A DNA stretch of 61,613 nucleotides, counting the filler, from Hausera hauseri (lineage: Eukaryota), in assembly GCA_046269625.1 (NCBI GenBank). It is 12 parts of 12 records of this genome, joined end to end, with 100 filler letters (N's around TTAATTAATTAA, not from the genome) between each part and the next. Parts side by side here need not be neighbours in the genome. Positions count along the whole stretch, not along the records: positions 34,269 to 38,692 come from JBJURY010589334.1; 11 more parts are not named here. One strand, given 5' to 3'. The notes under the pieces are model-generated. The model searched no databases and was not told where the DNA came from. It was given only the letters and a program-made list of their open reading frames with translations. Shown here piece by piece: positions 9,976 to 53,650 of the stretch. Numbering within the stretch: position 1 is the stretch's first letter; each line of letters starts with the position of its first letter. Both the position numbers and the translations under genes were made by a program.

Positions 9976-10124
9976 CAAAAAGCCGACCAATCCTGAATGG
10001 CAAGATTGCCCGTTAACTCCTCTTAGCAATAAAAAGTCGAATAAGTAAACGACAAGATTGTCGAACAGCAGATATAATTGTATATTACTGTACAAAGATA
10101 CAGACCGAAGTTACTAAATTTCTT

Positions 10125-10982: not shown

Positions 10983-11760
10983 ATGTCTAGTTCTGGAATA
11001 GGAACTGGCTCAAGTACAACTGGTACAATGGTCCTTCCGACTGACAAGTTGGAAGGAAAACCAGACCAAGATTATAGTAAGTTTTTAATGCAATACCAAA
11101 TGTATTCACAAAGTTTTGAATGGTCAGATGAACTTAGTATATAATGCCTTCCCTTACATCTTAAAGAAATAGCACTTGGTGCTTATGCTCAGCTTGCGGA
11201 TGATGACAAAGCTGATTGGGCTAGCCTTATAAACGCCCTGGAAGAAAGATTCTTATTAGACTCGTGAGGAAAAGGTCAAATAGGAGAGTTTAACAGGCGA
11301 CGCCAAAGGGAAGGCGAAACAGTAAAAGAGTTTGCATGTGCCCTTCAGAAACTGGTTCAGAGAGCGTATGTAGATGTTGATGTAATGAAAGATGCTCTCC
11401 TGGAGCAATTCTGTTTATGGAGTTAATGAAGAAAATCAAAATTATAGTATCGTTTCCGACCTTGACACTTATAAAGAAGCTGTCAGCAAGGCTAGAAAAA
11501 ATTGAATTGAACTATGAGAGAATAGAAAATACGAAAAAGCCTCTCAAAACTGATGATAAAAAAGTGAAAATTTTTCAGCCGAAGAAAAATTTTCAAAAGC
11601 TGTTTTATAAAGTTCAGAATCAAACAGAACAGACGAAGAAGGCTGTGGCAGCAAGACCAACCTCAAAAATCTGCGATGAGGAAACAAACGGTTAACCAGA
11701 ACGGACAACCATTATGCATTGCCTGTCAAAAAAACGGATATTGTTCGCTCTTGTCCTAAC
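10983..11760 (+). pseudogene. gag: Ty3/Gypsy gag (capsid plus CCHC knuckle), lineage A
   Basis: LPLHLKEIALGAY..WASLINALEERF..RRQREGETVKEFACALQKLVQRAY; frameshifted knuckle CIACQKNG..IVRSCP at ~11715-11760. Confidence 0.85.
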
Positions 11761-12674
11761 CAAGGACAGAATGTTGACATAGTAGGCAATATATCTGATA
11801 CGGATAATGAACACGAAACTACAGATAGAGCCTAAAAAAGCAATTGAAAAGCTACAGTAGAAAATTAGATATAAACTAAAAGTAAACTAATAAAGTAGAA
11901 GATGAAAATAAGAGCTTAATTAAAACAGCTGTATCTTGAATTATGGAACAACAAATCCGTGAGAGAAGACAAAAAATGAACGACAAAAATTCAATCATCG
12001 CTCCCGTTGGCAGGTCCAAAAAGACTCCTATATCAGAATCGGATATAGAAAAGAAGAGTTAAGAAAAAGGATAAACCTCTGATACAAGAGGAATTATAGA
12101 CTCCGGAACAGAACTTATCCTCCGGAAGTGGAAGTGAAAATAGTGAGTCAAGTGGAGAAAATGAACCCAGGGACGATAAAAAGAACGAGGAAAAAGAAAA
12201 TAAAGGAAAAATCTCCAAATTATGAGTCTTCACCTGTGGATTTCGACCAGGATGGCATAGAAATAGTTCGGAAAATATCCAGCTATGCCAACCAATAATT
12301 AATCAATGGCACTCGGTTTAGACAAGACCTGTCCATGTTAATGTCACCAACAATAAGCCATCAACAGTTTGCTAATTTATTGGACTTGTTGTTAATGTAT
12401 GCTGCTGGCACAAGTCCATATCAGAATGTTGTGCGATATATGATTTATCGGTACGCTAATAAAGTGACGACAGTCGGGGAAAATCCTGAAGTAATGGTTA
12501 CTCTCTAACAGTATAACCAGGACTTTCATGTTCTGAGGATGAAATCTTTAGACATAATAGCTATATTAAAACAAAATTAATGAATCGGCCTCAACTACAC
12601 AACAAAGAACAGAATATCGTCCACCACAATAATCAGAGAGACAACGAAATCTACAAGCAGATTTCAATTTATCA

Positions 12675-14480: not shown

Positions 14481-14764
14481 AAACAGAAGAAAAATAAGAA
14501 TGAGGAAGATGATAATAATAATGATGATGAACCTCCAGTAAAGATAAACGCGAGGAAACTTAAACCAGTAGAAAATAAAAGAAAGACATGGAGCCTGATT
14601 ACAGCTCGAAATAAAAAGAGGAGAACATTGTTATCAGATATTCCACAAATGCGGAAATAGAGTGAATACCCAATGGAACAATCACATTTTATACCTCCCA
14701 GTGAATACATAAACACATATTGCTCAAGCGATACGGATAATTATGATCAAAACATGTAAAGCTA

Positions 14765-22845: not shown

Positions 22846-24872
22846 GGAAGGTCTACATAGGCGTCTTCATAGGATTCTTCGTCCGGAGCTCCCTTCCATC
22901 TTCTCTTTTCTTCGTGGGAATATTCTTCCTCCGACTCTTCCTCGGAGGTGTGAGCCTGTATGCTTCGAATATTGGTCCTCTCGTGACCTTTGAATTTACT
23001 AAATTTGTTAATTGCCCCTGGTTGGGTTTTGTACCTTGTTGATTGGCCTGAGTTTCTGAGTTCTTTGGCCTTTTTGATTCGGTCCCAAAAATCTTGAGGA
23101 ACATCTCTGGGATCTGCATGTGGCATGTTTCTGCCTGGTTCCCTAAACGGATCCCACTTTACGTCTTCGCATTCCTCACGAGTGCCTCTCTTGTGCATTG
23201 CTTTGCAACTCCGACAGTAGGGCTTCCACTTACACTGCCGGGTCAGGTGTCCGATTGATTCGCATCGGAAGCATATTAATAGTTGGTCACGGTCATCTTC
23301 TCGATCCTCTTCTTTCTTTCCTTTTCCTCGTTTTGGGTAGTTCCTCTGTTGAGACCTGTTGCCAGTCTCTTTTCTCCCCCTCTTTTCCTTTCTTTTCCAC
23401 TCCTCTTTAGTAGCACCTTTGTTTTCCTCGTTGGCTTTAGCGTACCAGATGTCTGCCTTGTCCTCCTTGCCTTCTCTTCCCCCAGATTTTTTCATATGTG
23501 GCATGTTGATGGCAGCGTCAGTTACTGTAATGAATTTCCTCGTCTGGGAAGCGAGATCATCCAGATGAGTCACACTTCCTTTGATTTTCTGCTTTAAGGA
23601 AGTTTCCTGCGCTGGTAGTTTGGCGTACATGAAACTCGTGATGACGTGGTTGAGAGTGACCTCATTCATTTCGACTCGGGGGTCGTCCAATTTCGCCAGT
23701 CTATACCATTCTATTACCAAGTCCTGTAGCTCGGCCATTGTTAATCCTACTGATTCCTGAGGTTGCCATCTGTACTCTACTAATTCACTCCATACATCGT
23801 AGGCGTGCAGTGTCTTCTCTGAGACAATGAATGATCTTAGGGAGAGCAAATACTCTTCTGCAGTCCTTGCTTTCTCTAAGAGGTGGGGTTTGGAGATAAT
23901 TCTTCTTATTTCCCCCTTTTCAGGGTGGATTTGCTTCTTAATCTGCTGGATTTTATCCGCTTCTGTGTGGAAATTGGTGCTTAATAAGTTTCCGCGTACG
24001 TTTGCCTCCCAATCGTCATATTTCGGCCCTTCCCACTTACCATCGCTGCCTCTCCCTATCAAGATGAGAGATATTGTCGACGTTTCTTCGGTGCGCGTTA
24101 TATACACGGGCGTCGCGTTCAACGGCATGGGCCCGCTCGTGTAGTGCCCAGTATTTGTCGCTTGCGCTGCATGCTGTGCGAAGTTGGTGTTTTGTGACCT
24201 ATAGTGGGAGTTAGAATATGTAAGAGGTGGAGTTCGAGTGATATGAGGTGGATTTGATAATTGAGATTGTTGAGGATTATTAGGAAAGTTAGAGTTCTGA
24301 GGTGGAAACCGTGTATTCTGTGTGTGTGGGAAGTGGGGGGATGGGTCGGTTGTGTTTCCATATGCTTCCCTGTTAATAGGAAAAGGAGTGTTGAGTTGAT
24401 GGTATTGAGTGTCCTGAAAGAGGTGTCTGTGTTGAGGAAATTGATCAGAATGGAGTCGATTTTTATGCTGGGTTTGCTTTTTAGGATTTAATTTATCCCT
24501 CTTACTCCCCTTTTTGTGCCTCCTTTTGGATAATTTTTCCAATCGCTTTAGAGTTCTCTCATACTCACTCTCAATTTCAGTTCCAGACATACAATCGTCT
24601 TCAGAATCACTCTCCTCATCATACCTATCACTCCTCTTTCCCTTATTGTCATTCACCATTGTCAACCCTTGTTTATTGCCCTCAGTTCTTTCCCCCACAT
24701 TACCCCCCCCATAGGCTCCTATCTTATCCGACTCTGAACTTGGGGATTCCCCTTCTTCAGTTGGCTTGCTTTGTACATAGGTACCAGGTAATGTCTTTTC
24801 TGGAGATGAGGGTCTAGCCTCTAACCCATTGTTGGCTGTATCTTCCATGTTTTTTCTGTTAATGTTTTCCAT
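22833..24872 (-). CDS. gag: Gag polyprotein
   Basis: 679-aa ORF; CFRCESIGHLTRQC knuckle followed by CRSCKAMH...C; lies between PBS and pol. Confidence 0.88.
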   Translation of the reverse strand: MENINRKNMEDTANNGLEARPSSPEKTLPGTYVQSKPTEEGESPSSESDKIGAYGGGNVGERTEGNKQGLTMVNDNKGKRSDRYDEESDSEDDCMSGTEIESEYERTLKRLEKLSKRRHKKGSKRDKLNPKKQTQHKNRLHSDQFPQHRHLFQDTQYHQLNTPFPINREAYGNTTDPSPHFPHTQNTRFPPQNSNFPNNPQQSQLSNPPHITRTPPLTYSNSHYRSQNTNFAQHAAQATNTGHYTSGPMPLNATPVYITRTEETSTISLILIGRGSDGKWEGPKYDDWEANVRGNLLSTNFHTEADKIQQIKKQIHPEKGEIRRIISKPHLLEKARTAEEYLLSLRSFIVSEKTLHAYDVWSELVEYRWQPQESVGLTMAELQDLVIEWYRLAKLDDPRVEMNEVTLNHVITSFMYAKLPAQETSLKQKIKGSVTHLDDLASQTRKFITVTDAAINMPHMKKSGGREGKEDKADIWYAKANEENKGATKEEWKRKEKRGRKETGNRSQQRNYPKRGKGKKEEDREDDRDQLLICFRCESIGHLTRQCKWKPYCRSCKAMHKRGTREECEDVKWDPFREPGRNMPHADPRDVPQDFWDRIKKAKELRNSGQSTRYKTQPGAINKFSKFKGHERTNIRSIQAHTSEEESEEEYSHEEKRRWKGAPDEESYEDAYVDLPDFQ
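22839..22845 (-). promoter_or_regulatory. -1 ribosomal frameshift slippery site G GAU UUU
   Basis: Minus strand reads CCG GAT TTT CAG TAA at the gag end; a -1 slip enters the pol frame (SVSSRAPERL...). Confidence 0.75.
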
Positions 24873-24974
24873 TTTATAATAATAAGTAAAAATTTTCTTT
24901 TACCTTTCGTTTTTAGAAGACACTGTTTCTTCCGCTAGTGGAGGTTTTTTCTTTCTTCACGACGTCTTCAGAAA

Positions 24975-25686: not shown

Positions 25687-28680
25687 TGTATGCTTAGAAA
25701 TTCTTTGTTACATTCGTTTTGTCATTGGTATAGCAATATTGAATCGCTGATAGAAAACATGTAGTTTGGTATGATGCGCAGGCTCGCTCGTTGTCTGCCA
25801 AAATTTTAAGGAGTACTTTTCTTTGGTTCTTCATATTGAATTTAGCTAAGCGTGTTCTTTTGACGTTCTCTTCCTCCACGAAGATATCAAGTTCTGCATA
25901 CACTGTCCGCCGAATGTTAGCGTTCAAACATGTATAGGTATTATTGATGTTGAGGTGAGACGGTAGAGAATATTTGTGCCATACTTAGCCGTTAGGTAGC
26001 ATTTTTTGCTCAGTTATGGTGCGCAGCCATTCTTCATATGAGATGGTGCAGTGTTGGTGAAGTCTAACAAGTTGCGCAACACAGGACCGCACCATTGGTA
26101 GCCAATTTGTAAGACTGGAATTTGCGGATTTATCAAAATTGAAGCCCTGGTTAAAGCTAATGTAATAAAACTGGTAAAAGGTGGCAACAAGAACTCCAGT
26201 TTGCTGATTAGTGTAATAGATAGGAAAACATTCTAGCATTGGAATATTAGTGTTAATGATAGTCGTAATGTAATGCAATAGAGTTTCGTCATTCTCGAAA
26301 AATTCTGGTGCCTGCTTTGGCATTGCTACTTAAAATTGATCGGCATTCTCACTAGATACACCGTGTAATGTGTTGGGCTCTCCCCAGTGCAAAAAGTTAG
26401 TAGAGTAGCTCCTGTGGTCTTCAAGATACCAATGGAAACTAATGAACATCATACCGACATGGCAGCAAGGCAGTCTTATGTCGTCAAGAACGTCATTGTT
26501 GCAGTTCAAACAACCAGGTCATATCTCATAAACAAGTCACCGGGCTTTAAGAGCTTCCCGAAATGTAAACTAATGTGCATTTCCTTTTGCATACCAGTAG
26601 ATCGTAAAATGTATGTATCAGAAAATAAATGATCTTTTGACACATGACAATCACCCAATTTGGGTCTTTGCGGTGGGCAGAGTGTAACGTTATGGACGAG
26701 AAATTCAGTTAACTTACGAGATGATGCATCGGCAGAAAAATGGTTGTTGATATAGACGGTTGCATCAATGTTTCAAATTTTTTCCCCTAACAGATCAATC
26801 AAATGGTTTTGATGGTTGATTTGCAACACAAGAAACAATAGATCCAAAATGCCTATTTGTTATGTACAAGTCTTCGTTAAACAAACTAGATCATTTTTAT
26901 GACCTAGCGAATTTTGACAGACTACGTACATTTGTGATTGTACATATTGTTGTTGTTGTCTGGTGACTTCAATTTTTTTGACTTTGCGTATTGTAATGAC
27001 CAATGGTTTTGTAGAAACTGCGTTAACTTTACGGCACTGGATTTGTTTTAAAAAATGTTAATTGCAACATTAAGTATTTTATTAATTGTATGATCTCTGT
27101 GTGCCTGATTGTGGTGCTTGCCGCGGCTGGTGCCCTTTGGCCCATTCGGTTGGGCACGGCCGGACGTCCGCTGTCGCCGTGTCAGACCCATAGTCGGGTC
27201 CGATCTTCCAAATATTTTCCTTAAGAATTTAATGTTTTGCATTTTTCAGGATGAAAATTCATTTATTTCTCTTTTTATTATGTTCATTTACGTCGCTGGA
27301 AACGAGATAAAAGTTTATAAAATTCTAGACAGTGAAACAGTATCCCATTGCGTTAAACGGCTAAATTCAACTTCATCAGTTGGTTGCTCATCAAAATACT
27401 ATGGAAACAATAGAGCTGTTCAAATTATTTACAACCTATAATATCTCTAGCAATTTTAGCGTTAACTTCTTTGATAGCAACCTGAGTCCAATGTCGAAAA
27501 GCAGAGGTGGTCTTTTGCGAACAGCATTTTATCGGACTCTCAAGAAATCATTGAACGTCGAGTCGCTGCGAAACCAAAACCTTCAACGGCAATCGTGGCC
27601 AGATGTTGACGAGGAAAATGTCGAATCAATGGATGATAATAAGTTGTCGTCGTGTAAAGTCCTGTTATGACTGATAGGAATTGCAGTGATTTTGAATACA
27701 GTACGTATAAGGGCAACAGCATTCCGCGGCTATTACCCATTCAGTCACGTGTTAAACAGAATCCGAATTCTAAACCGTATAATTTCGGACCAATATCCAA
27801 CGAGCCCCCTTATCACAAAGATGCCATCTCAATGGGATTCTATTCAAAAAGTCGAGCTTTAACTCCTCCCATTTCGTTTCGTTCTCAGAAGAACAACATC
27901 TTTCGCTTTCCAAATTCATATGGTGATAACAGTAAAAATAATGCCCATCATTCGATGAATCAGCGGCGATGTACAGTCGAGATCCATAGAATGCGATAAC
28001 CATGCTGTTGAAAATGTTACATGATGACTAATTATGCATGTGTTAGTGTTTCAATTTATTCTTCCGATGAACAAGTATCAAAATTGATTTTTAACGAACT
28101 TTGTCTCAGTTTTTCTACGCATTCTGATGATGGTATTTTTACAGTTGAACAGAACGAATCCTACTTAGTGACATGTGTCGGAATTGCTGACCTTTGCTTC
28201 TCTGTGTGTCGGTTGTGGTGTGTTGAAGTGTACAAAATATTTGGTTTTAATAATCCATGGGTTTTGACCTTTTTTCCTATTCAAATAAAAAATATTTTCG
28301 CCATTTTCTTTGAAGAATTTGAGTTATAATTTCCAATTTGTGCAATATCAAATTTAATTTTACAGCTTTGGGAAAGTTTGCTTTTTGTTGATTATTATTT
28401 AAGGAGCTATGATATTAAATCTCATGTCTATTTGTGCAACTAAAGGAACTTCAAATTATTCGTGTATCTGTTTAGTTCAATTTGAGTCAATATTCTTGGT
28501 TACCGAATTTAAAATCAAAAGAAAATTTCTACCTGCGACAAATTTAATCGAGAATATATTAGGCACATCCGATTTATTCCTTGTCAGAAAACGGACCAAA
28601 CAAAGTCCTGATTTGGTTCATTTTATATATGCTAACCACAATAATTAGTATGGTCAGAAATGTGTGCATCTCTTCGTTGA
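25687..28680 (-). pseudogene. Long decayed ORF downstream of pol with a signal-like start; interrupted by a ~1 kb insert
   Basis: MHTFLTILIIVVSI near 28670; same-strand ORF pieces at 25985-26323 and 25694-25927; no family recognised. Confidence 0.35.
27251..27441 (+). pseudogene. NCSTN: Nicastrin N-terminal gene fragment
   Basis: Signal MKIHLFLFLLCSFTSLETR, a frameshift, then KVYKILDSETVSHCVKRLNSTSSVGCSSKYYGNNRAVQII, which resembles nicastrin [38 protein letters not shown]. Confidence 0.7.
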
Positions 28681-31401: not shown

Positions 31402-33337
31402 CAGTAGATACCGCTTAAAGAGAATATTTTTGGGACTTGAAAAAATGTTCTCTATAACCGATATTTCTCTTTAACAGATACTTTTTTATAAGGATAATTT
31501 TTAAAAAATATCAAAAAAAACTTTACTAATCAACACATTTATTTTTTAAAAATAAACTCAGTTATTTTTCGCTGCTTGGTTTTTTTCTTGAGTAAAATCT
31601 TCTCCAAATCTGATTCAATTGCTATTAAACTTTCTTGTAAATGGTCAGTTTTATCCTGATTTGAATAAAAAAGAACTACTTGTTGCATGCACTCAAATGC
31701 TTTATGAATGTTGGGAAGCTTAACACATTGATTGTTATCTGACGTATCAGATAGTGACAAATTTAATTCTACTTCCTGTTCATTGACATTTTCTGTTACT
31801 AAATTTTCTTCAGCATTAACAAAATCAGTAAACGAGTGTTGCTTTTCAAAATATTCCTCTATATCAGATGAAAAATTTTCATTTATTGCCATTTCTTCAA
31901 CCACTTCGCCGAAACCAGCATGCCTAAAACAATTTTTTATGGTATTACAGCTAACTTTTGACCAAGCCATTTTAACCATGCTAATTGCATCAAGAATACT
32001 TACTTTAAATTTTTCTTCTGGATAGGAATCATAAAAATGAATCATTTTTGTAACAATTCCTTTTTTATAATACTGCTTAAAAGCATTGATAACCCCGGCA
32101 TCTAAAGGCTGTAACTTACTTGTAGTATTTGGAGGCATAAAAATCAACTCAATATTTGTTAAAGATTGACCTAACGGAGGATGGGAAGAACAATTGTCTA
32201 CTAATAAAATAATATTTCTTCCAATTTTTCTTAATTTAGAATCCCATGACATAATCCAATTTGAAAAAATTGTTGATGTCATCCATGCATTCTGATTGTT
32301 TTTATAATTTAGGGAAGTAATATCAACATTTTTAAAACATCGGGGATTTTTTGATTTTCCAATTATTAATGGAGGCAATTTTTCACCTTCCATACTTGCA
32401 CAAAATAACAAAGTTATCCTATCCTTGGATAACTGGCCTCCAACGCACCTTTCTCCTTTAACCTTAATTGTTTTATTTGGCAAAAGCCTATAAAATAATC
32501 CCGTTTCATCTGCATTAAAAATATCTTTGTTACCATAACCTTTCCTAATTTCCGGCCATTCATTTTTAAGCCACGACGCCACCAATTCATTATTTACATC
32601 ACCAGCTTCTCCAGAAATCGATCCGAAAACAAGAGAATGGCGAGTTTTAAAACGTTGGATCCAACTCATTGTACAAGTAAAATCTTGAATCTTTAGGTAT
32701 TTGGCAATTTGATCAGCTTTTTCAATAAGTAATACACTGTTAATGGGTATCTTTTTAGATCGTTGCAGCAAATACCAATCCCTTAACTGAATATCTAAAT
32801 CATCATAAAAAGATTGTTTCAGTTTCTTGGTTGATGAAGGCCTGGAACTGTAGGCCTCAAGTATTTTTTCCCTTTTCTTGTGACAAATGTTTGATATTGA
32901 TGAAGGAGATATTTTATATTTTCTGGCCAATGATGCTTGATTTTCTCCTTGCTCAAAAAGTGCTATGATTTCAAATTTCTGTTTGAGTGTTAGAATTGTC
33001 CTGGAACCTGATTTCATTATGGCCTAAAATTTTTAGGTAAAATAATATTTTCAATTAATCAAATAACCTTTAATCAGGTTACTTTTTAATCAATTACCTT
33101 TTTAAAACAAAAATAATTAAATTATATGTTTACTGCCTAAAATAAACTGTATTTTGAAAAAAATAAAACCAAAATAAAAAATGTTTATTTTAATAAAACA
33201 TGTTCTCATTAACCGATAATCGGTTAATGAGAACTTTTACACTGAAAATTTGGGGAAAATGCCATTTTTGAACCAAAAAGTTCTCTTTACCCGATTTTGT
33301 TCTCTTTAAGCAAGTTCTCTATAAGCGAAATCTACTG
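31402..33337 (-). mobile_element. pogo/Tigger DNA transposon, full length (1936 bp)
   Basis: TIRs CAGTAGATACCGCTTAAAGAGAA and CAGTAGATTTCGCTTATAGAGAA (20/23 match); flanking TA at 31400-31401 and 33338-33339. Confidence 0.93.
31539..33017 (-). CDS. pogo/Tigger (CENP-B-like) DDD transposase
   Basis: Intact 492 aa; N-terminal HTHs, IFNADETGLFY, LLVDNCSSH, PPNTTSKLQPLDAGVI, KQRKITEF tail. Confidence 0.96.
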   Translation of the reverse strand: MKSGSRTILTLKQKFEIIALFEQGENQASLARKYKISPSSISNICHKKREKILEAYSSRPSSTKKLKQSFYDDLDIQLRDWYLLQRSKKIPINSVLLIEKADQIAKYLKIQDFTCTMSWIQRFKTRHSLVFGSISGEAGDVNNELVASWLKNEWPEIRKGYGNKDIFNADETGLFYRLLPNKTIKVKGERCVGGQLSKDRITLLFCASMEGEKLPPLIIGKSKNPRCFKNVDITSLNYKNNQNAWMTSTIFSNWIMSWDSKLRKIGRNIILLVDNCSSHPPLGQSLTNIELIFMPPNTTSKLQPLDAGVINAFKQYYKKGIVTKMIHFYDSYPEEKFKVSILDAISMVKMAWSKVSCNTIKNCFRHAGFGEVVEEMAINENFSSDIEEYFEKQHSFTDFVNAEENLVTENVNEQEVELNLSLSDTSDNNQCVKLPNIHKAFECMQQVVLFYSNQDKTDHLQESLIAIESDLEKILLKKKTKQRKITEFIFKK

Positions 33338-34268: not shown

Positions 34269-37200
34269 CAGACTCCACCGCAGCAAGGTTACAATAGAAA
34301 TCCGAGTAGATCGAAATCTCCATTAAACGAAGATGGCCGACAAAGTGTGGGAAGAAATGGCAATTTAGTCTGCTTCACATGTGGACAAGAAGGACACATA
34401 GCGAGGTTCTGTCCGATTCCGCGAAGTGTTTCGTTTGTGGAACCTAATAAAACCAGTGTAATTAAAAACGAAAATTTAGAAGCAATTTACAGTGTCCGTA
34501 GAGACACAGGAATGATTATCGAGGTACAGGATTTACGATGTTTTTCAAAAGAGCAGCCTGAGACTAAGGACCCCAAAAGTTTAGTGGCTAGAAATGAATA
34601 TGAGCACAAATTGCGACTAATGGAAGTTTACCATGGCCTGCGTGAACCAGAAATGGAATATGAACGTTCCATTGCCCCACCAAGGCTAAGTGATATGGCT
34701 CGGAAAAAGAACGCTCCTACGATAAACAAAGAACCAATCGAATCAGGGAAGTCTGAGACTCCGGGTAAGGCAGATTTAGAACCTGAGTATACTATAGAAA
34801 AAGTAACCAAGGATGCAGAGGCCGACGAAAAGGAAGAATTTCTCGAACCGCTTATACTTAAAATCACCAAGAATAGGGGCCGTAGCCCATCACTGAGACG
34901 GAAACGTAAAGATCGTTCAAGATCCCCAATGATCAAAGAGAAATTAAAGACAAAGAGAGATACCGAAATTACAATTAAGAGCAAAACCGGATGTGCATCG
35001 GACACTTCGAAAATTAATTTAGTTACGCCCAACGAAATGGGTGAGCTGATGAAATCTATAGATGAAATAAATGATGTATATCTCTTACCTGCGAGCGAAG
35101 AGGAAACAGATCTAAACAGATTCTAAAAGGTGGAAAATTAGGCGCTCATGGAAGAATGCAGAGGAGTTAAAAAGAATAAGGATGAACTATCGCAATCCAG
35201 AGGTATTACGCCAGAATCTAGAGAAGGTCAAAGCAATGAGCGAACAAGTGGATATTTCTGGTAAAGAACAGCAGTTTGTAGAAAGATTATATAAAAATAT
35301 GAAACTATGTAGCAAAGGGAAACTTAGTGAAGTTATAGATTTAGATCAACCAGAAGAAGTGGCAAAAGAAACCCTAGTTCAGTGGAATCGTAAATTAGAA
35401 CGGTGGATCAGAAATAAGACAAAACTTCCGGAGACATGGGATAAAACTACCAAAAAAAATTGAAACTAGAGTCAACCAGGTCCAATCGTTATTGGCTACA
35501 CTAGAAGCCAACCCGAAATCAAAAAAGATCAGCACGTAATTTGGAGCGTGTCATGGACGAAATTAGATTCATCATAATCGAACAACTAAAAAAGAAGCTG
35601 ATCAAAGAACGAGATGCAAACCACTTAGAAATGTTGGGCATAGATGTACTGGATATTCCGCCCTTAACGGAAATGATAAAAATCGCATCTACTGCTACAA
35701 GGCAGTATACTAGTTTGGAAAATCGTCTTAAAATAGAAGTCTAAAAGCGGTCGCAGATATATAGTCTAAGGAATAGGATCATGCACCCAGCTGATATAGA
35801 AACACAGAAAATAATTCTTACTTGTCTCCTCGAATTCGATGAATATAAGGATGAGTTTGACTATGCCTACCGGATCATCGATTTTATTAGAGGTCCAGAT
35901 GACAAGCCAGATGACGCTGGCAAAATGTTAAATAAAGCGATACTGGCAAAGCCAGAAATCGCTAACCAGTTGAAAGAATGGTCAGGAGTAATAACGAGGC
36001 TGAGTGAATTAGTGGTCGATCGGAAAAGGGAATTTCCAGAAAGTGAATCTACCGTTAAGAAGCAGCTGGAAGAAGACACCGAAACCTAGATACGATGAGA
36101 GCAGAGATTGACATCCGAACCCAATTCGAGGCAATACGTCAATTAAATTTTATGGAAAAGAAAGAGGAGATGATGGTGCTAAATAATATATATAAAATGA
36201 TTGAAGAAATTAATTTCACGCGAAAGCGAAACGCGACTTGCGATTTCTACCCACGACTAAGAGATGTCCGCTTGAAAGGAATACGTTGGTTGACAGTCAA
36301 ACCTATCGAAGAAATCTCAATGAGAGATCATAAAACTTTTGACTTTTGTCCCGAATACCGGTCAGCCATTAAAGAAGCAGTTAAGTTCTTACATCGTCCC
36401 CAGAAGTGGAGAGATGGAACGGACCAAAGACTTCATACCGAATTAACTAAAATAAAGAACGACCGCCACCTTAATTTCGAAGAGATTAAGTTCGTAGAAA
36501 AACTATTAGATGCTATAGATCCGGAATCAAAGAACATTAAAGAGATGTACGAGCTAGCGCTATTGATGGCAGAAATGGCAGAAATTAGTGACGAGAAACT
36601 AAGGCAATTGTCGCAGCACATACAGTAAGTCGAAGAAACTTGCATTCAGACGAAACAGAGAGCGATAAGGTTGGACGAATTAGCTAGAGAACTAGAAGTT
36701 TACAAAAACAAATATGTCCTTACAGAAGCCGAAAAGGCTGACAAGTCACAATTCATTCAAAGATGGCAAAGAGATGTCACCTCCGAACTAACGAAATACC
36801 AAGAAAGGAGTCTAATTTCTCCCGAAGAATTATGTTCGTTGTTAACACTGCTCCACCAAACGTCCGCTAATGGGCGATGTTTCTGAACGACAAAAATGGT
36901 CCAGATACAACAGAAATTACAAGAACTCCGAGCACCTACGTGGCCCACAGTAGTGGGCAGGCCAATCGATACACCGTTGAAGAACTATCAACTGCCAGAT
37001 AATGAGAATGAACCAGATTTGGAAGCCTATTTAAATGCAATGATTGCGGAAAATCCGAAAATCCCAATGCACTTAAGCGAAATGGAGATGTATTCTCCTG
37101 AACAAAGATTCAACGTAGAAATGCTTCTGGACCCAGCGCAAACTGAGAAGGATTTAACTCAGCTGAAAGAAATAAATCTTGCTGAAATTCAATTAAGACA

Positions 37201-38250
37201 GCTAGTCCCCACTCTAACTAAATTGGCTAGTGAAGGTACGATCTTCAGTACAGTACCTAAGCTTTTACTCAAAGAATATGCCAGAATTTTAAAGGTAAAG
37301 GCAGAAGATAAGATTCTAGTAAAAATAGCATCAGATTGGATGAAGGAGAAGGAATAAGAGTTCACTACGCGTTCCTTTATAAAGGATGTATTACTATGGA
37401 TAAAGAAAAACGGATACGCCCATGAGTTGAGCTATATGCTTTATTTCCGAGGAAGGATATTAGACGAGACGGAACAATTAATAGAAGTTGGAATTATTCC
37501 GGGTGAAGTGAACCGATTGGTAATAACCACCGCTACCGACGAGACAAAGGAGGAGGCTATAAGAAAGGCTAAAGCAGAACAACAGGTAGGACGAATAATG
37601 GGAGTCCGAGATGCAGCAGTGTATTTTGAGTATTTTCAAACGGATGAAGATAATAAGCAGTATGATAAAAATTTAGTACCGATCGATGGCAATATAACCG
37701 TGGTAACAAAACAGAAACGTCCTGTTGGTAGACCACGGAAGATACGAGATGAAATCGATTATAATGGAGACTTGATTAGAGAATTGAGGCAAATGTCCAT
37801 ACCGACCGTTGGCGCAGATAATGAGGAACTGAACTCAATGATGAAAGATTTAATAAGAATAGTAAACTACCCTAGCCTCAGCAGTGATATATTAGACGAG
37901 AAGGAGAAGGCCATAGCGAAAGCTGCAAAGGCCATGAAGAATCTCTGCTGTAAATCAACTAAGAGCACTTTAAGTGATGAAATGATAATTGAGAAAATTA
38001 TGGTAGAAAATACTCTAGCGGAACTGAGAAAAGTATTACTATACCTGGCCATTAAAACCAATCCGAATCGGGAAAATGAGTTCATCAAGGCTACTAGCTT
38101 GGCAAGGAAGGCTGTCAGGAAGTTACCCCGAGAAGTGAATTGGTCTAAGTTATTCGAAAAAGAGGAAGAACATCAGAGTGGATTCTCCTTCGATAGCAAT
38201 AAATTCGGAGAATTGCTACGAAATGTAACTGGAAATCAAAAAGGAAACGA
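34269..38250 (+). pseudogene. Gag C-terminus (CCHC) plus ~1,270-codon accessory region with a ubiquitin-like domain and AT-hook
   Basis: CFTCGQEGHIARFC at ~34370; ORF pieces follow closely in a few frames; UBL-like segment ~37310-37530; KRPVGRPRK at ~37714-37741. Confidence 0.7.
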
Positions 38251-38256
38251 ATCGAA

Positions 38257-38480
38257 TTGGCTAATAAACTTTCTGATCATGATGATGTTGATAAAAAAAT
38301 GGGTGCAGTCACAGTATATGATTGTGACAAATTTAGACTTGGCCAAAAGTACTCACTAATGGACTTGGAAATCTGTGAGGACGCGAGACCACACAAATTA
38401 GAAACAAAAGAAAAGAGTTACGTATTATACCAACAACGTGAACTACTTGCATTAGATGGAGTAGAATGTGTGTTGAGACT
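38257..38480 (+). pseudogene. env: N-terminus of chuvirus-like glycoprotein, truncated
   Basis: WLINFLIMMMLIKK/MGA|VTVYDCDKFRLGQKYSLMDLEIC..YVLYQQRE..VEC; homologous to 12675-12900. Confidence 0.75.
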
Positions 38481-40789
38481 GATACATGGGCACTCGTCAA
38501 TAATAAAGCCGACAATCACACCAATTACGATTGTTAGTAGATCGCGTATCTACCATTCCGATCTCAACGTCATTTGATGATTGTAAGACTGAATTATGCA
38601 TTAGAAATTTATTACAAAAGTTGGTATAACAATTAACTCATTCACTCATTAAATGATTCTTCTTTTCATCCTTTTTTGAATTTCCTGAATTTNNNNNNNN
38701 NNNNNNNNNNNNNNNNNNNNNNNNNNNNNNNNNNNNTTAATTAATTAANNNNNNNNNNNNNNNNNNNNNNNNNNNNNNNNNNNNNNNNNNNNCGACAGTT
38801 AGTGCTCCCAGTCCAGCTCACATAAACATATGGAAGAAGAAGGTAAATCAATGCTATGCAACTATGACCACCTCAGGTACACTTCATGTCCTCAAATGTG
38901 TGGCTTTTCATGGCTTTAAAATAATACAAGGGCCAGTTCATACAGTGCACGATGAATTTAATTTAATGCATTTAAGGAGCTGAGTTTACCGAACATAATT
39001 CTTTTGCTTGATTCGTTAAACCTGGATGGTGATGTGTTAAAACATTTCTTTCCAAGTGCACAAGTCTCATTGCAGACAGTTAGTGGGGACATGAAAGAAC
39101 TTAAGCATTGGTATGAGTACATCAATTCTTTACTGAATAGACCACACCCTCAGTACCAGTATCTACAGAGATACGGGCCACATTTTTCTATAATAAGTGA
39201 AGGAAGCAGTAAAAAAGCTCAAATATACACTCAGGCCTAATAAAATGGAGAGAATGTTGAAATGCTACCAGACGAGGAGAAAGACTCCTAAACAAAACTG
39301 TACAAGATCTGGGAAAAAGAAGACAACCCCCTGCCCCCAGACACAGAGGAATGGAAAAAGAGATGATGACTAAAATACACAGAAAAGGAGAATAATCATA
39401 TATTCCAGACATGTTTTACTTTTCCAAATGTGCTAATCAAGAATATTGGAATTATCGGAAAACCGTTTTCATTTATTTTTGCACACTTGCACATGCGCAG
39501 GGCACTTGCACTATGCACTGATCGATGCACTTCGATGTACTCTATCGATTAGCACTTTATGACAATCGATTTCAATCAATACTGCACCATGCAGCTGTAG
39601 TATAATGTAAATAACCCATAATGACGGAAGTTCAATCAGTAATCAGTAAACAATGAACTGAATTGTGTACGAAATGATGAGAAATTCACATTGTTTATAT
39701 TGAATTTTCTCATGAAAATTTATATTTATTTATATTCTGTATTAATTAGATTGTAAATAATGTTAGATTACTGAGAAAAAGGACTGTAAATATTGTCGGA
39801 AAATGGCTGATTAAGAGAATAAATCATGTAAATATTAGGATGGACAAGAGAAAAGAGAAATAAACAAATGATCCGAATGGTATATATAGTAGAACGTAAA
39901 ATGAAAATTAGAACAGTAAAAAGTTGAACGGTTAACAGTGAAATCAGTGAACAATTTGAGAACAGTGTTTTGAACAGTGATTCGAAGTTAATCAGTGATT
40001 AGCGAACCAGAACGATTTCAGTTGCGAAACCATTGACGTTATTCGATTGATTTGAAACTTACCTTTACCTGACGATTTGATTCAATTTTTGTGGTATATT
40101 TTATTGTGAATATATTTTGTTGTTGTAAAATCTTATATAGCTTTTTCGTCGCTCTTTAAGAGGGACTTGTACCACATTAAGGTTTAAATTCATTTAACGT
40201 CTCTAGATAGGACTAGAATTTGTAATTTAAAGCATTCACTGCACGCAGTACCCGCAATATCAAATCAAGTGCAAACTTCTAACGAGAACGTTAGAACTTA
40301 TCTGCATAAATTAAAACTTATTAAACGAATCTTATTGTTATAGTTGGGTGTTGGATAGGGCCCACCTTCAACTACTAACAATATCGAATAACATTCTGAA
40401 GTCGTTTAATGACTTTTTATTTATTCTTTCGAATTTTTCTGCAAACACTCAATTTACTTCCGAGGTCATTTAAATTTCTTTTTTTGCTAATAACAGATAA
40501 AATAATTTCATAACTGGTTAAAATAATTCAATGAATTTACAAATAACATTCATCCACCTAATATAGCTTCTACTGACAAACCTTATGCCTTTTCTACAAC
40601 TACCATGTTCTTTTATAACACAAAGAAAACACAATTAGTCAAATATCTTATTAAGGAAAGAGTTTTTGCCGATTTTTAATACTTATTGAGCAATCGTTAA
40701 TAATAAGGATTATAACAAAGAATATACAAACAGATGGCTATATGCGAATGGAAATTGTTAATCTTTATTATTAGCAGCGATATCACAAT

Positions 40790-42987: not shown

Positions 42988-45847
42988 TTGTCCGGATTTG
43001 CGCGATACGGAGTCATCCCTAAGTCCGTAGATAAAATTACTTCGCGTCCATGAATCATAAAAATGGTATAAATCCTGTGGCGGGGTGTGGCATAGTATTG
43101 ATAGCGAATTGTGTTCCTTCTAAAAATTCATCCCAGTCCTTTTGATTCTTCGCTACTACGGTTGATAAGACACGTATAACTGTGGCATTCATACGTTAGA
43201 CCATCAATTGCACTGAGGGTGGTAAGCGGTAGTGGTTAGTCGTTCAGTCTCGAAGATTTTAGAAATTTTGTCAAATAATTCGCTTGTAAAATTTCTTCCT
43301 GTATCGGTTAGTATTTGATCGGGCGGTCCGTATCTGCAGATGATTTTCCTTACTACTGCGTCTGCTAATGTTTCCGGTTTTCGATCGATTAATGCGATTA
43401 ATTTCACGAAGTGTGTTAAACGATCTAAGCATGTCAAAATATATTTGTTATTTTTATGAGTTGTAGGTAACGCTCCTAATATATCTATAGACATAGCCTG
43501 CATAGGTCCTTCTGGTACGTCGATCGGTTTCAATTCTGCTATATAGTTTTTCACTTTTCTTTGTTTTGTTGCACAGACTTCACAAGCGTCCACCAAATTT
43601 TTCACATCGATATAAACGCTTAACCAGTAATACTTATTCAATATCCTTTCTAATGTTTTGTTCCATGACATATGCCCGGCTAGATGTGAATCATGTTCGG
43701 CCATTAGTACTTCGGTGCCTAATCCTTTTGGATTAACTACCAGCTTCCGTCCTTTGCGTTCATAATATAAAATATTATCCGGATTTGATGCATAATATTT
43801 ATGTCCGTGTCTCTGTAAGTGTTTCTTCCAATTGAGCTTTCTTCATGGTTGTAATCGTACTTGTCTTTGTTTTAAGTCTTGATAAGGCGTCTGCGTGTAC
43901 ATGTTTACTTCCCGGTTTATATTGAAATTCTATATTGTACCGTAAAATTTCCTCAATCCATCAATTTAGTCTACACGTCGGGTTATTAGCCCGTCCCTTA
44001 AGCGTCGTAACAGCTTTATGATCGGTAACTATAATAATTTTCTTTCCGTAGACATAGACATTAAAATGTCTCAAGGCTTCTTTTACGGCTAGTGTCTCTA
44101 AATCAGTGACTGAATAGTTTTTCTCAGCTTTCTTAAGCAATCGTCCTCCGTATGAAATTTGATGCTCCAATTCTTCATCTTTTTGTTTTTGAGCTAATTC
44201 GTAACCAGTTCCTTCCGTACTTGCGTCTGTTTAAATTATAAATGGTAAATTGAAGTCAGGGTATCTTAACACTGGTTCACTTGTTAAAATTTTCTTCATT
44301 TCGTCGAACGCTTTCTGTTCAACATCAGTCCATTTCCATTTAATTACTTTCTTCAATAGCCGATATAATGGTGCATTTATTTTCTAGTTTTCTGGAACGT
44401 AGGTGGCATAATATCCGCATAAGCCTAACGAATGCCTTAATTCTTTCTGATTCTGGGGTTCCATACAATCTGATATTTTGTTTAACAAGAATTTGTATGG
44501 CCTCGATCCTCCTTCTCCGACTATATGTCCGAGAAAAGACGCGGAATTTTGTGCCCATTTACGTTTCTTTGGGTTTAGTTTTAATCATGCCTGCTCCAAC
44601 CGCATAAGAGTATCTTCGATGGCTTTTAGGTGTTCTTCTTCTGTTCGTGACGCTATCATTACATCGTCTAAATACGCAAACGCATGATCTAGGCCCATTA
44701 GCATCTTGTTCATCATTCTAGTAAAAATATCTGGACCGGTTGTTATACCAAACGGCATGACGTTAAATTCATAAACTCCATCGTGCGTTTTAAATGCTAT
44801 CTTATAACGATCATCTTCTTCAATTTCTACTTGCCAATATCCGGATTGTAAATCCAGAGTTGTAAACCATTTTGCTCCTGATAATCTGCCTAGAACTTCC
44901 TTTACTGATGGTAGTGGAATTGAGTCCTTCATCAAAAGTGTGTTTAGGGCTCGGTAATATATACAGAATCGATGTTTTGTGGTACCTTTTTTCTTAATCA
45001 TGAGTATTGGTGAGTACCAAAATCGATAGCTTTGTCGTATTATGTCAGCTTTTAATATACGTTCTACTTCTTTTGTTATTTCAGGCCTTAACAAATGCGG
45101 CGGTGTTTACTATTTTGGCATATTTTGCTCTTCCAAATCAATTTCATCATTGGAGCCAGATTTCATTTTTAATGAAATGGTTAATCTTAAGGTTTTCGCT
45201 CTAGTTATGTCTTCTTCATTTTGGGCAATAAGTGACTTATATTTGCATAGTAGTTCGTAAAATTAACAATATACTTCCGGCGAAAACTTAGTTTCAACAT
45301 GAGGTGGAAATTCAGCATATTTATATGGTTTTTCTTCGATTGTTATTGCTGACACCTTATAAGTATGAACCAATGTTTTCATCGACGGAATTCATACTTA
45401 TCCTTGCTTCCTTTCTTTCATTGTTTCAATCCCTTTCAGTGGTCCAAGTTCAAGTAGTTTTCCAGTCTGTAAATTTATTGCGATATTGGGTAATTGCTTC
45501 AGTATATCGCATCCTAACACTACATCATGAGTTAATTGATCCATTATGGCAAACTCGTGTTGAAGGATTTAACCCATTAATTGAATTAGAGGACTCCATT
45601 TAAACTTTGGTTTGGATTCTTTCCCGAAGGCTCCTATGCTGTCTGGATCTGACGATGATGCTGGCTGCAGTTGTTTTCGTAGTGTCGGCGGTATTGATTC
45701 TAATTTTATAAATGATTTCTCCGATCCGGTGTCGATTAAGGCATAGACTTCCCAATTTTCAATAGTAACTTTTGTGAAGGGTCTTCCTTCCATAACTGAT
45801 CCATAAGAACTCGACACGTCTTTTGGTCGTTTAATCGAAGAAATCAT
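42988..45847 (-). pseudogene. pol: Ty3/Gypsy pol (PR-RT-RH-IN), lineage B copy 1
   Basis: ALIDTGSEKSFI; LDLQSGYWQV, MPFGI, YLDD; NYSVTDLETLAV..VTDHK; HHCC, TAYHPQCN. Confidence 0.93.
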
Positions 45848-46054
45848 GTCCGTTTATCGTTATCTCTGGTGATAAAATAATATTTTCGGTTAGTTGTTTC
45901 AGTTCTTCGTTAGGGTATAAGTCGTTAACTGCCATATTGTTCGCATTGTTTCTAATTAATGGTTCTTGGACTATTGGATTTTGGAACGATTTCACTCCTT
46001 GTGTTCCCCAGACTGTTGATCTTTTTCTATATTGCAAGCTATCCTCGGTGAGTA

Positions 46055-47516
46055 CTATATCCCGTGATCGTCTTCCGTTCGTCGTTGGTTAGTGATTTGT
46101 ATCTTCTTTAAGACTCCATATTGTTTTGTTCCTTCATAAGGATCTTCATAGCTGAAGGGTTTCTGACAGAATGCTGATCTATATGACATCATAAATGTTT
46201 TGACACAATTCTCGTATATCGGAGCCGTTGGCGGCATGATAGGTAAGGGTGCTCTAATTACTGAATACATTTTGTGTCTATTTTGTCTAAGAATCGCATC
46301 TCCTCCCTTAGGCTCGTCATCATCTGAATCATTTCTTCGCGTCATTGGTTTCTTAGTTTTGCGTTTTAGTCGAAATATGGGTCTTGCTCGACGTTTATGA
46401 TTATAATAGCCGACATGGCGTTCAACATTATTTTTCCATCGATTTTCTTCATACGCTTTAAGTATTTTGCCAAACGGTGTGATGATTGCTGTCAGTATTT
46501 TACATGAAAATCCAGTCAGCGTAAATATCTCGTATCCATTAATTACCGCTTGGATGACGGCCTTAACCATCTGTATTAGAAAATATATTGCTAAGAATCT
46601 GGATGCGGTTTGTCCGAAAATCAAAAATCTTCCCTAAATTTTAGAGTATTTCTGTTGTTACTCTCTGATAGTGGTTTACTTCAAGTAATGATTCCCATTT
46701 AGCCTGATATCGTGTATCATCTATTACCGAGGCCATGGCTCGATTTAATTCATGAGTCCGCTGTCGCGGAAAGTCGAGAAATTGTCTGTATATACCTTTC
46801 GAGGAGATGTCTTGAAATTTATCGTCCGTAATCTTTTTTGCAAGATTAGTCTCTGTTAAGTTATTTGGAGCGGCGGTAATACCTCCGTGTGGCAAGCTAA
46901 CCCAGTCTGTTTCGCTACGTCTAAACATGGGTTTTCCTAAATTTGCCTTGCAATTTTTAAGAATGGTTGGTTGGGTTGCATTATCCAATAACACTCTTGT
47001 CAACGGTATAGCCAACCGTGGAATACTCTGATAGATAACAAGAAGTTCCTGTATACAACGTATTTCTTCTACATTAATGGGTACGTCTCTTTTTTCACAT
47101 TTGTAAGTTAATAATACTTCGCCCGTTACTCGACCAAAGATTTCTTCTCTCATAGGAATTATTGGAGAAGCCAATTCTGGGTTGGCGTATATGACAGCCA
47201 ATTTTGTCCTCATAATTTCGGGATCCAATTTGCAGTCGTTCATTATCATTTTGTGGTATAATTCCGTTATTCCGGCTTGTCCTTTATAATAGAAGTAATC
47301 ATCTCTGTTTTTTAGGTAATCCTCGATTCGGACGTCCTGAGTTTCTAGCTTGTAAGTCCTTGCATTTATTTCTGTCTCTGCGACAAAAAATGCTTCGTAG
47401 TTGGTGGCGAACATTACTACATCACAACGAGAGATCATTGCTTTCTTGATAAATTTTAGTCCGTGTTGGTCAGAGATTAATATAGTGGGTGTAGAATGTT
47501 CGGATACATCCTCGCG
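46055..47516 (-). pseudogene. env: Chuvirus-like glycoprotein (C-terminal half, TM, cytoplasmic linker), lineage B copy 1
   Basis: ELYHKMIMNDCKL..GRVTGEVLLTYKCEK..CIQELLVIY..PLTRVL..KGIY..FLDFP; FGQTASRFLAIYFLIQMVKAVIQAVINGYEI..ILTAII. Confidence 0.85.
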
Positions 47517-47616: not shown

Positions 47617-47852
47617 GTCAAAACGATCAGAAATGTCTCAAATAATATAAGTCGCACTGAAAATGTAATTGCCTTCATACCAATGAAGTCCATGACGATG
47701 TCAAAAGAGAAATTCGTTAGGTCTATCCGTCAGGTCTTTCCACGCAATTCCGGTTCAAAAATGTTACCGACGTCCATAATGCATAATTCCTTTATCAGGT
47801 ACCGGGCACTATCATCTTGGAAAGCTTCAATATTTATAAATCCTGTAGCCAT
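47617..47852 (-). pseudogene. DEDD-like protein N-terminus (homolog of 254-742)
   Basis: MATGFINIEAFQDDSARYLIKELCIMDVGNIF. Confidence 0.55.
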
Positions 47853-47936
47853 TACTTATCATTTTTTACAAAATCATTTTTTGTTTATAACATAAGAAAA
47901 ACAACTAACTATTATTATTATTATCATTACAATAAT

Positions 47937-48407
47937 TAAACATAGGTGGTTTTGTCCATATCACCGAAACCGAATTTTTTTGCGTTTATTTCGTGTTGAT
48001 TCATGCACACAAAACAGTCCCAATTGTTCTGGTTACATTACACTAAATTCCGCCTCTTCACAGCGAACAAAAACGATTTGTGCTATTGCACTGCCTTTTG
48101 AAAAAGCATAGGATTTACCCAATTGGTTTTCTAGCAACATATTAATTTCACCACGAAAGGCCGAATCAATGGCGTCACCCGCAACCGTCAGTCCGAGCTT
48201 TTCCAGTCCGCTTTTCGATAAAAGTTGACCGTAGTAACGCGGTGAAATCGCCAATCGAATCCCATTCGTTATGCATTTGATTGTGCTGTCCGGAATTGTC
48301 GTATTGACATTGGAAAACACGTCGTAGCCTGCACTGCTTGCTGTAACACGTCTCGGTACAAAGGCATTTTCGTCTGTTAAAATAATCTTTACATCATTAA
48401 TTATCAT
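47937..48407 (-). pseudogene. dut: Trimeric dUTPase
   Basis: SAGYDV, YGQLLSKSGL, GDAIDSAFRGEI, IAQIV; premature TAA at 48033 (TCA in the other copy); GFG tail. Confidence 0.9.
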
Positions 48408-48500
48408 TATTCTTATGCCAATTTTTTAAAATTAAACGTATATTTATACTCGTTATTTGGGTTGCTGAAAGAAGATGAAAAACAACGGTAAAAGAAATTT

Positions 48501-48900
48501 ACTTATAATTAATATGTGCTTCAGCTACGCACCAAATCGGGCTTTTGATACCAGCTTTTTCCTTGTATCCTTGCAATTTAATGTTAAGTCTACACTTTAA
48601 ACCAACACTATCATCATCATCGGGTACATGAGACATTTCGCGACCGATAAAATCAAACTATTTCGTTTTCTGCACCGGTAAATCGACAGATTGCTGTTGC
48701 GCTTTCGTTTCGTTCAACTTTAAATATACGTTTAATTGATGTAGAGCATCAGAAAGTTTATCCAGATTTTCACCCGAAAGCCGTTTTACACGATAGCTGT
48801 ACTCCGGTGCACATAGAGACACGGGATCATTCAATGAAATCAGTATGGGAGTTTGCAGAAAATGCATTTCGTACTTGCGAAAAATTCGTTTCGGTAAAAA
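48501..48900 (-). pseudogene. Unknown Maverick protein (possible OB-fold), paralog of 1538-2000
   Basis: ORF 48658-48867 continues in frame past one stop to CRLNIKLQGYKEKAGIKSPIWCV. Confidence 0.5.
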
Positions 48901-48924
48901 TATTTGTGTCTGGCGTGCAACGGT

Positions 48925-49332
48925 GACGTTATTGTCACCGACGATTTATTTCAGGAAGCCGCAAAACAATCGGACTTTAACAACCTGTTCACGAAGATTG
49001 CATGAAACCGTGGCGTAACGGTTATTTTCATTACGCAATATATGTTCCATCAGGCCGGCCAGAATCGAACAAGAAATCTAAAAGTGCACTATTTGGTGTT
49101 GTTTAAAAATCCCCGTGATAAGACTATCATTGGTTATGTTGCACGACAAGCATTTCCTCACAACCGAGCCTACTTGATATATGCATATCATGATGCTACA
49201 AACAAATAGCATGGATATCTGTATACTGACTTTACACAACAGTGTCCCTACTACATGCGTGTACGAACAGACATTTTCAATCAGAAAGGTGGTGCATGTG
49301 TCTATAAACGAATTCGAAAATCGACGACATGA
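48925..49332 (+). pseudogene. A32-like packaging ATPase, N-terminally truncated
   Basis: VIVTDDLFQEA (Walker B), VIFITQ, HYLVLFKNPRDK, ARQAFP, AYHDAT..HGYLY.D, RVRTDIF; no Walker A. Confidence 0.85.
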
Positions 49333-49525
49333 TTATGATAAAAAAATAAAAAATTTCAGAAAAACAATTTTTAAACCTAAACCTGCTACCAAGCGGGTGT
49401 CCGGCGGCAAGAAACGTGTATCAAAACGAAGCGCTGCTACAGTGAAGCGATTAACCAATTCAGTGCTTCGAACAACAAAAGCAGCAGCTAAACGCAAATT
49501 ACCGTCACAGTGGCAACGGTTATAA
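49329..49525 (+). CDS. Small basic protein (Maverick core-like)
   Basis: K/R-rich, contains VSGG, ends QWQRL. Confidence 0.4.
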
Positions 49526-49578
49526 ACAACTACATCTCATCATCATCGTCATCAGCAGTATCAGTACATCCGAGAAAC

Positions 49579-49905
49579 ATGCGACTCAAAGGTAGTCAGT
49601 CATACTTTATTGCTTTGCTCAAGGTACCTACGAGACATAAGTGAAACATGCTACGATCATTCCCTCAGTTTGTAGTAGATGATTTGATGGAAATTTTATA
49701 CAATATCGTTGTGGGCCACGTTGACATTGGTAGTGGAAAGCGGAATTTACTAAAGTATCGAAAACGACTCATTGGCCTTGCCAATATCCGTAGTAAACGA
49801 TTGAAAGGAGAGGTAATATACCAGCAAGACGGTGAAATCCTTGGTGCAATTCTACCGATTGTCATGTCATTACTGGGTGGTCTCATTAGTTCTGCAACAG
49901 CATAA
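49579..49905 (+). pseudogene. Conserved small Maverick protein with amphipathic C-terminus
   Basis: EILYNIVVGHV...LLKYRKRL..LA...QQDGEILGAILPIVMSLLGG, a variant of the QxGGFL..LL family. Confidence 0.6.
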
Positions 49906-50017
49906 TATAAACAACGACGGTAAGTATATGGTGTTTCGGCGATATGGTTGCATAGTTTTCATATTTCTGTCCCAGTTTACCAAATCTTTCATTTACGTTT
50001 CGTTCTAATTGTTGTAA

Positions 50018-52038: not shown

Positions 52039-52074
52039 TAAACAAACTGCGTCAACACCATTATCATCGAGATC

Positions 52075-53640: not shown

Positions 53641-53650
53641 CAAATGATTA

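Follow-up and report, generated by a model that had tools for sequence, protein, structure and literature searches.

A probable Burro-like Ty3/gypsy element with a long cargo region between gag and env in the Hausera hauseri assembly

The DNA analysed here (the window) is a stretch of 61,613 nucleotides from the Hausera hauseri assembly GCA_046269625.1 and consists of 12 unplaced contigs with N44-TTAATTAATTAA-N44 spacers between them; neighbouring contigs are unlinked, and adjacency was therefore rejected as evidence. A repeated retrovirus-like element is present as a decayed copy in the 4.4 kb contig at 34269-38692. The contig very probably represents part of a multicopy Burro-like Ty3/gypsy element whose Gag, long cargo region, internal signal and gB-like envelope protein (Env) likely formed one reading frame, which probably ran on into pol. 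As this layout is already known, the finding mainly adds a family; what is new is a cargo with no firm match to known proteins and with weak hints of a chromatin-directed module. The host of the element is probably a flatworm, in agreement with the resemblance by eye of the glycoproteins in the window to planarian Env sequences.

Reading frame from the Gag knuckle to the glycoprotein

The contig is divided as follows, with expect values given as E.

34371..34412, + strand: Gag CCHC zinc knuckle CFTCGQEGHIARFC; Pfam PF00098 (zf-CCHC), E 5.4e-6, passing the cut-off
34413..38254, + strand: cargo region, ~1,280 codons; from translations, stop density and coverage by related contigs
38255..38307, + strand: internal signal-peptide-like stretch; hydropathy 1.96, where the upstream pieces do not exceed 1.17
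38308..38540, + strand: N-terminus of a Monjiviricetes-type (gB-like, class III) glycoprotein (G), truncated, end approximate; tblastx to the G of lineage A, E 2.8e-5
38541..38692, no strand assigned: dissimilar, apparently far more repeated sequence ending G, boundary approximate; from loose ends and the depth in the last bins

The contig begins ~100 bp (34 codons) upstream of the single knuckle seen, and the knuckle and the first 237 codons of the cargo form a single open frame. From the end of the knuckle to the hydrophobic WLINFL stretch we measured 1,282 codons, close to the ~1,270 proposed between the Gag knuckle and G in the initial annotation. Four stops (35742, 36626, 36884 and 37355) interrupt this path, which also changes frame near 35115, 35455, 35525 and 36080-36095; together with a shift at an A-run near 38295 this makes about five frame changes in the chain, and between 35455 and 35525 the path is one that we infer. 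Four consecutive pieces (36059-36625, 36629-36883, 36887-37354 and 37358-38356) share a common frame, as had been noticed initially for four pieces from 36095 to 38359. From 36095 on, 739 codons of this frame include 3 stops; the remaining two plus-strand frames have 83 and 57, and in 2,000 base shuffles the best frame never had fewer than 29.

Strand and a uniform A-rich base skew are maintained from the knuckle through the cargo to G. The contig shows no terminal repeats around the cargo, and such short repeats as occur look like chance. The cargo had been described as E/K/L-rich and probably helical. The first part of this description holds, with E+K+L making up 31-35% of six of the seven cargo segments (21% of the seventh) and 23-27% of six G and Pol segments; the second part draws on composition and on low-confidence models only. 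A heptad scan of the cargo gave one coiled-coil-like stretch, 36425-36526, and no long coil of the Smc kind was seen. The cargo segments were scored on helix, disorder and hydropathy scales.

The sole strongly hydrophobic window of the chain lies at 38255-38296, and the sequence VTVYDC that begins G lies at 38308 in a different frame, the shift falling at the run of seven A near 38295. The start of G matches that of lineage A, another G-bearing lineage of the window, at 12675 (E 2.8e-5; 42% over 26 aa, 39% over 28 aa). The same signal-plus-YDC junction had been claimed initially for both positions; here signal and VTVYDC are frame-separated. In lineage A the signal-G junction (12633-12938) is in one frame. 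Taken alone, the G piece from 38308 has no Pfam match, and its assignment to the Monjiviricetes type rests on the match to lineage A, whose G pieces themselves match PF24664 at 2e-4 and 1.3e-10. G breaks off after ~75 codons and its frame closes at 38575; summed depth along the contig peaks, by a wide margin, in the sequence at 38541-38692.

Related copies and the unity of the element

Related copies were collected as contigs at 80-100% identity in two public sequencing runs, X1 (15.5 million contigs) and X2 (9.6 million), the latter differing from X1 in organism label and study. There were 8,208 such contigs in X1 and 596 in X2, and in both runs all 30 bins of the contig were covered. Only 1% of the related contigs in X1 and 8% in X2 continue into unlike sequence, with no pile-up of ends listed. 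Of the 8,861 contig pieces, 16 were examined, and among these the junction of cargo and G is spanned by one contig in each run. Summed depth is a poor measure in these data and does not give copy number. For the stops at 36626, 36884 and 37355, 97.9, 96.9 and 98.2% of the X1 depth disagrees with this copy, and X2 gives the same picture at all three, with one contig each for the first two. The 12 indel rows examined, of 22 on the contig, include rows close to four of the five frame changes. Because most of the related depth differs at the stops and indel rows lie near the frame changes, the breaks are likely lesions of this copy.

Copy differences in 36095-38311 were analysed for coding constraint in 40 tool-chosen rows of 364, of which 37 were classed and three stop rows left out. 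Split at 85% frequency, the near-fixed differences are synonymous in 4 of 29 cases and those of intermediate frequency in 6 of 8, the latter exceeding the expected 28.5% (p 0.009) and the near-fixed class (Fisher p 0.002). Free decay of this copy together with selection among the other copies would produce such a pattern. We regard the support for constraint as only moderate, since row selection was the tool's and the 85% cut the analyst's. A lack of constraint among copies had been named initially as a finding that would speak against the coding interpretation; the intermediate class points away from it, and the pooled count, 10 of 37 synonymous, is the neutral share.

Given that related contigs cover the whole contig, that its stops are mostly private and that the junction with G is spanned, the cargo is likely part of the reading frame of one multicopy element and not an insert; we infer one frame through the cargo. 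Several observations weigh against this interpretation. The pooled synonymous share is neutral, and the signal emerges only after the split by frequency, on 40 of the 364 rows. X1 is possibly the window's own source, and among the 16 pieces examined none bridges knuckle and cargo in another copy. Finally, the contig carries no pol, long terminal repeat (LTR) or capsid domain, and no contig joins it to one.

Three other constructions of the region were weighed against a single multicopy element. One is that an element of separate origin, or the relic of a host gene, came to lie between gag and env in this copy. A separate insert or host gene had been raised in the initial annotation as a finding that would refute its reading, and the fall in summed depth right after the knuckle, the lack of homology to the spacer of lineage A and a possible host-derived CHD1 piece (see below) would suit such an origin. 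Yet knuckle and early cargo share an open frame, the region has neither terminal repeats nor boundaries in its skew, cargo and G are bridged by contigs of two runs, and few contigs run into unlike flanks; an insert with boundaries of its own is thus largely refuted and hardly credible. Runs of A are a slippery type of sequence, and the frame change before G falls in one, with the listed indel present in only a minority of X1 depth, as would be seen if programmed ribosomal frameshifting near 38295 linked the cargo frame to a separate envelope frame. Such a frameshift would, however, part the signal peptide from its cleavage site; the A-run varies in length among contigs of both runs and loose ends gather there, the corresponding junction of lineage A is in one frame, and three of the four other frame changes also lie near indel rows, which together make programmed frameshifting very unlikely. 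It is less far-fetched, if still improbable, that the family is non-autonomous or differently built, with gag, cargo and env but with pol either missing or encoded in a frame of its own, and is moved in trans by lineage A or by lineage B, a further G-bearing lineage of the window. No pol is linked to the contig and G is cut after ~75 codons, as this would allow; against it, both of the other G-bearing lineages run G, protease (PR), reverse transcriptase (RT), and the G start at 38308 and the G of lineage B both resemble, by eye, the Env of Smed_errantivirus_5 and _6 (PMC13524379 supplement).

If the cargo belongs to one polyprotein with Gag and Env, it would be translated from genomic RNA as a cytosolic extension of Gag, as its want of a membrane segment suggests. 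The hydrophobic stretch at its end would then send the glycoprotein into the endoplasmic reticulum, signal peptidase would cut just before VTVYDC, and the protease of the element would release the cargo. The full polyprotein would comprise ~3,500 aa (~300 Gag, 1,300 cargo, 600 G, 200 tail and 1,100 Pol codons). This figure is only an estimate, because parts of it come from other contigs and pol is not linked; it accords with the initial suggestion of a polyprotein of well over 3,000 aa, a size documented for Burro (excerpts of PMC6431247).

Weak domain resemblances within the cargo

No Pfam family scores above its cut-off anywhere in the cargo. The candidate segments are the following.

34413..35114, + strand: charged, probably disordered linker with an NLS-like (nuclear localization signal) basic cluster (RRKRK at 34896); top disorder score of the seven cargo segments
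36320..36523, + strand: candidate CHD1 C-terminal helical (CHCT)-like segment; match to PDB 2n39
37301..37528, + strand: candidate ubiquitin-like (beta-grasp) segment, interrupted at 37355 by a stop; ubiquilin ubiquitin-like domain (UBL) and Pfam ubiquitin
37715..37750, + strand: AT-hook-like motif KRPVGRPRK; Pfam PF02178, E 0.095-0.21, below the cut-off
37760..38239, + strand: predicted helical domain, ~160 aa; single-sequence model with a predicted local distance difference test score (pLDDT) of 38

The CHCT-like segment gave the best match among eight PDB searches of the cargo. It aligns with human CHD1 (PDB 2n39) at E 0.0019 with a query of 400 aa and at E 0.00037 after trimming to the match, and the alignment is ungapped over ~50 residues, which correspond to the first part of the domain. 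Beyond these ~50 residues the match to CHD1 is weak, and helix 5, to which excerpts of PMC12390759 assign the contacts with Rtf1 and some of those with DNA, lies outside the well-matched part; the domain is described there as binding DNA, nucleosomes and Rtf1. The ubiquitin-like segment aligns over the whole domain with UBL entries of ubiquilins (E 0.23-1.7; four of five matches) and with Pfam ubiquitin at E 0.19. The helical domain at 37760..38239 occupies the place of the BCL2-like domain of Burro and is of the right size; it has no PDB sequence match, and Foldseek returned nothing at E up to 0.001, with viral Bcl-2 rows only at E 3.6-3.8. At a pLDDT of 38 the Foldseek result was set aside as meaningless. 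The linker at 34413..35114 had no Pfam or PDB match at E up to 10, and no match to the other cargo pieces in PDB sequence searches fell below E 0.2. Domain-wise modelling, as proposed initially, was carried out on two segments and gave low confidence in both (pLDDT 56 and 38).

Searches for relatives among proteins longer or shorter than the queries, the lengths covered, found none related among 2,955 longer candidates for the C-terminal cargo piece, 2,600 shorter candidates for the 751-aa cargo frame or 1,098 longer candidates for the lineage B glycoprotein. Since this last, a clear glycoprotein, also yielded no relatives, the blanks for the cargo carry little weight. Two scans for the locus in metagenome contigs (77 and 203 pattern matches) and two in viral contigs (8 each) found nothing.

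Taken together, these resemblances tentatively suggest that the cargo is an accessory protein acting on host chromatin or on ubiquitin-linked control, by way of the NLS-like cluster, the CHCT-like and ubiquitin-like segments and the AT-hook, a role in line with the host-modulating cargo of Burro. More specifically, a flatworm element may have captured the C-terminal domain of a host CHD1, which would now be fused with a ubiquitin-like domain and an AT-hook within a Gag-Env polyprotein; we consider this doubtful. Every domain call in the cargo is weak, and other results tell against these assignments: the CHCT-like segment has no CHD1-family Pfam match, and a MerR coiled coil appeared at E 0.014 in the same PDB search; the four ubiquilin matches represent one family, and weak tails cluster by chance too; the single-sequence model of the ubiquitin-like segment is all-helical, without a beta-grasp (pLDDT 56); and the protein searches, though of low sensitivity, found no relative of the cargo. 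It is about as likely that, in the same element, the cargo serves chiefly as a helical spacer or scaffold whose CHCT, ubiquitin-like and AT-hook resemblances arose by chance, a difference that concerns its role only. That no Pfam family passes its cut-off, that charged helical sequence easily gives weak matches (MerR at E 0.014, DUF5798 at E 0.004) and that both models are of low confidence would all follow from such a scaffold, whereas the ungapped CHCT alignment over ~50 residues would not, nor would the content of strand-forming residues, which is highest in the ubiquitin-like stretch (0.35, against 0.21-0.31 in the remaining cargo segments), nor the position of this stretch where Burro has its Ubi2/SUMO-like domain.

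Should the CHCT-like, ubiquitin-like and AT-hook calls be true, the slot between gag and env would carry a chromatin-directed module, with a bearing on insertion-site choice or the evasion of silencing in planarian stem cells. If the capture from CHD1 is true, a chromatin-docking accessory protein could steer the element to transcribed genes or interfere with them, and the slot would hold wholly different host-derived toolkits in different families. A limited literature search found no report of a CHD1 CHCT domain in an LTR element.

Related lineages, known systems and other elements of the window

Lineages A and B provide the G-bearing comparisons within the window.

11757..12674, + strand: gag-G spacer of lineage A, 306 codons, heavily decayed; compared with the cargo
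46058..47516, - strand: C-terminal part of the lineage B glycoprotein, followed by PR, RT, RNase H and integrase (IN); PF24664, E 5.4e-18 and 8.3e-11

Lineage A (10871-16450, + strand) is a compact version of the layout, with a heavily decayed gag, the 306-codon spacer, a G of ~585 codons, PR and RT. Its spacer from knuckle to signal, put at only ~300 codons initially, measures 306 codons against ~1,280 in the contig at 34269-38692, and shows no similarity to the cargo of 34413..38254 at E up to 1. The proposal that the interval between gag and G is an expandable slot thus agrees with the two dissimilar spacers and with what is documented for Burro (excerpts of PMC6431247); it is sound but already known, since Burro provides both an expandable gag-env slot and giant polyproteins. 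One assembly therefore holds two slot sizes with unrelated contents, apparently without the apoptosis domains of Burro. Lineage B, a candidate for the 3' part of this kind of element, is present in copies at 42988-47516 (- strand) and 52851-57254 (+ strand) that are 70-74% alike, in the order C-terminus of G, ~200-codon tail, PR, long PR-RT linker, RT and IN. This linker, where Burro has a dUTPase-like domain, has no Pfam match at E 0.01. The pol genes beside G in the window follow the gypsy order, with gag-G-PR-RT in lineage A and G-PR-RT-IN in lineage B. A further contig (6413-10770, + strand) has frames at 8654-9271 and 10017-10646 behind an integrase whose RT is ~80% like that of lineage A; the first of these has a signal-peptide-like start and a weak Fn3 match (E 0.097).

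The nearest described systems are the Burro/GYPSM1 elements of planarians, for which excerpts of PMC6431247 report one open reading frame of 4,873 or 5,140 aa; a Gag with two or three knuckles; cargo motifs of the AIR1, Smc, MATH, BIR, ankyrin, Ubi2/SUMO-like and BCL2-like kinds; and an env that matches mononegavirus fusion proteins and lies in frame between cargo and pol. The same excerpts, covering two species, describe cargo that varies between them and mention decayed copies with stops and frameshifts, and these elements are reported to be abundant and to be expressed upon PIWI loss (excerpts of PMC11410931 and PMC8532177). Our comparison is with the description in PMC6431247, not with sequence, and the supplements of the original paper may list more cargo domains. 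The present element shares with Burro the order of Gag knuckle, long cargo and mononegavirus-fusion-like env, and the occurrence in many copies, some of them decayed; late in the cargo, where Burro has its ubiquitin/SUMO-like domain, it has a weak candidate for one. One knuckle is seen on the contig, which reaches 34 codons upstream of it, and two or three are described for Burro. A difference is that AIR1/RING, MATH, BIR, ankyrin and BCL2 have no Pfam or PDB match in any cargo piece; the candidate CHCT-like segment and the AT-hook are in turn absent from the list in the review PMC6431247. Burro exceeds 30 kb and has its dUTPase-like domain between PR and RT. The element would work in the manner of Burro, but because the MATH, BIR and ankyrin domains were not found, it is filed as Burro-like and not as Burro.

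Errantiviruses of the order GAG-ENV-POL with an HSV/gB-type Env are described from Platyhelminthes in excerpts of Chary and Hayashi (PMC13524379), which list nine flatworm elements; that survey took intact elements only and sought GAG within 5,000 nt upstream of ENV-POL. As in these elements, env here follows gag on the same strand and a gB-type ectodomain follows a signal or membrane segment, multiple related copies are found, and the start of G resembles by eye the listed Schmidtea Env starts. A gag-env cargo of 1,280 codons is not described in the excerpts of PMC13524379. Anakin, a chuvirus-like glycoprotein in mosquito BEL/Pao elements (excerpts of PMC7642597 and 10.1101/2022.06.22.497255), is a captured glycoprotein of the same broad class; it belongs to a BEL/Pao element of insects, unlike the gypsy-order pol here, and those excerpts describe no such cargo for it.

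Among the other contigs of the window, 17644-24899 (- strand) holds a gypsy element with an open gag of 688 codons and an open pol of 1,741 codons, in which no env was seen; it has a weak dUTPase match between PR and RT (E 0.1) and a long repetitive tail after the integrase. Decayed pieces of polinton-like appearance lie at 1-6312 and 47617-52750, with an integrase (E 1.5e-12), a dUTPase (E 1.9e-17) and, by eye, DNA-polymerase-B-like text, and 520 bp are common to both contigs at 79%. The contig at 57355-61613 is a 15-bp satellite of 284 copies; a 1,173-codon open frame and pentapeptide matches there follow from the 15-bp repeat and were rejected as evidence of a gene. An open frame of 494 codons at 31542-33023 (- strand) encodes a Tigger/pogo-type transposase (DDE_1, E 1.9e-44; CENP-B_N). 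Scraps of two host genes, the KDM5 JmjC domain at 25988-26329 (- strand; E 1e-4) and nicastrin at ~27346-27430 (+ strand; E 5e-5), share a contig with the remains of a gypsy RNase H and may be cargo captured by an LTR element.

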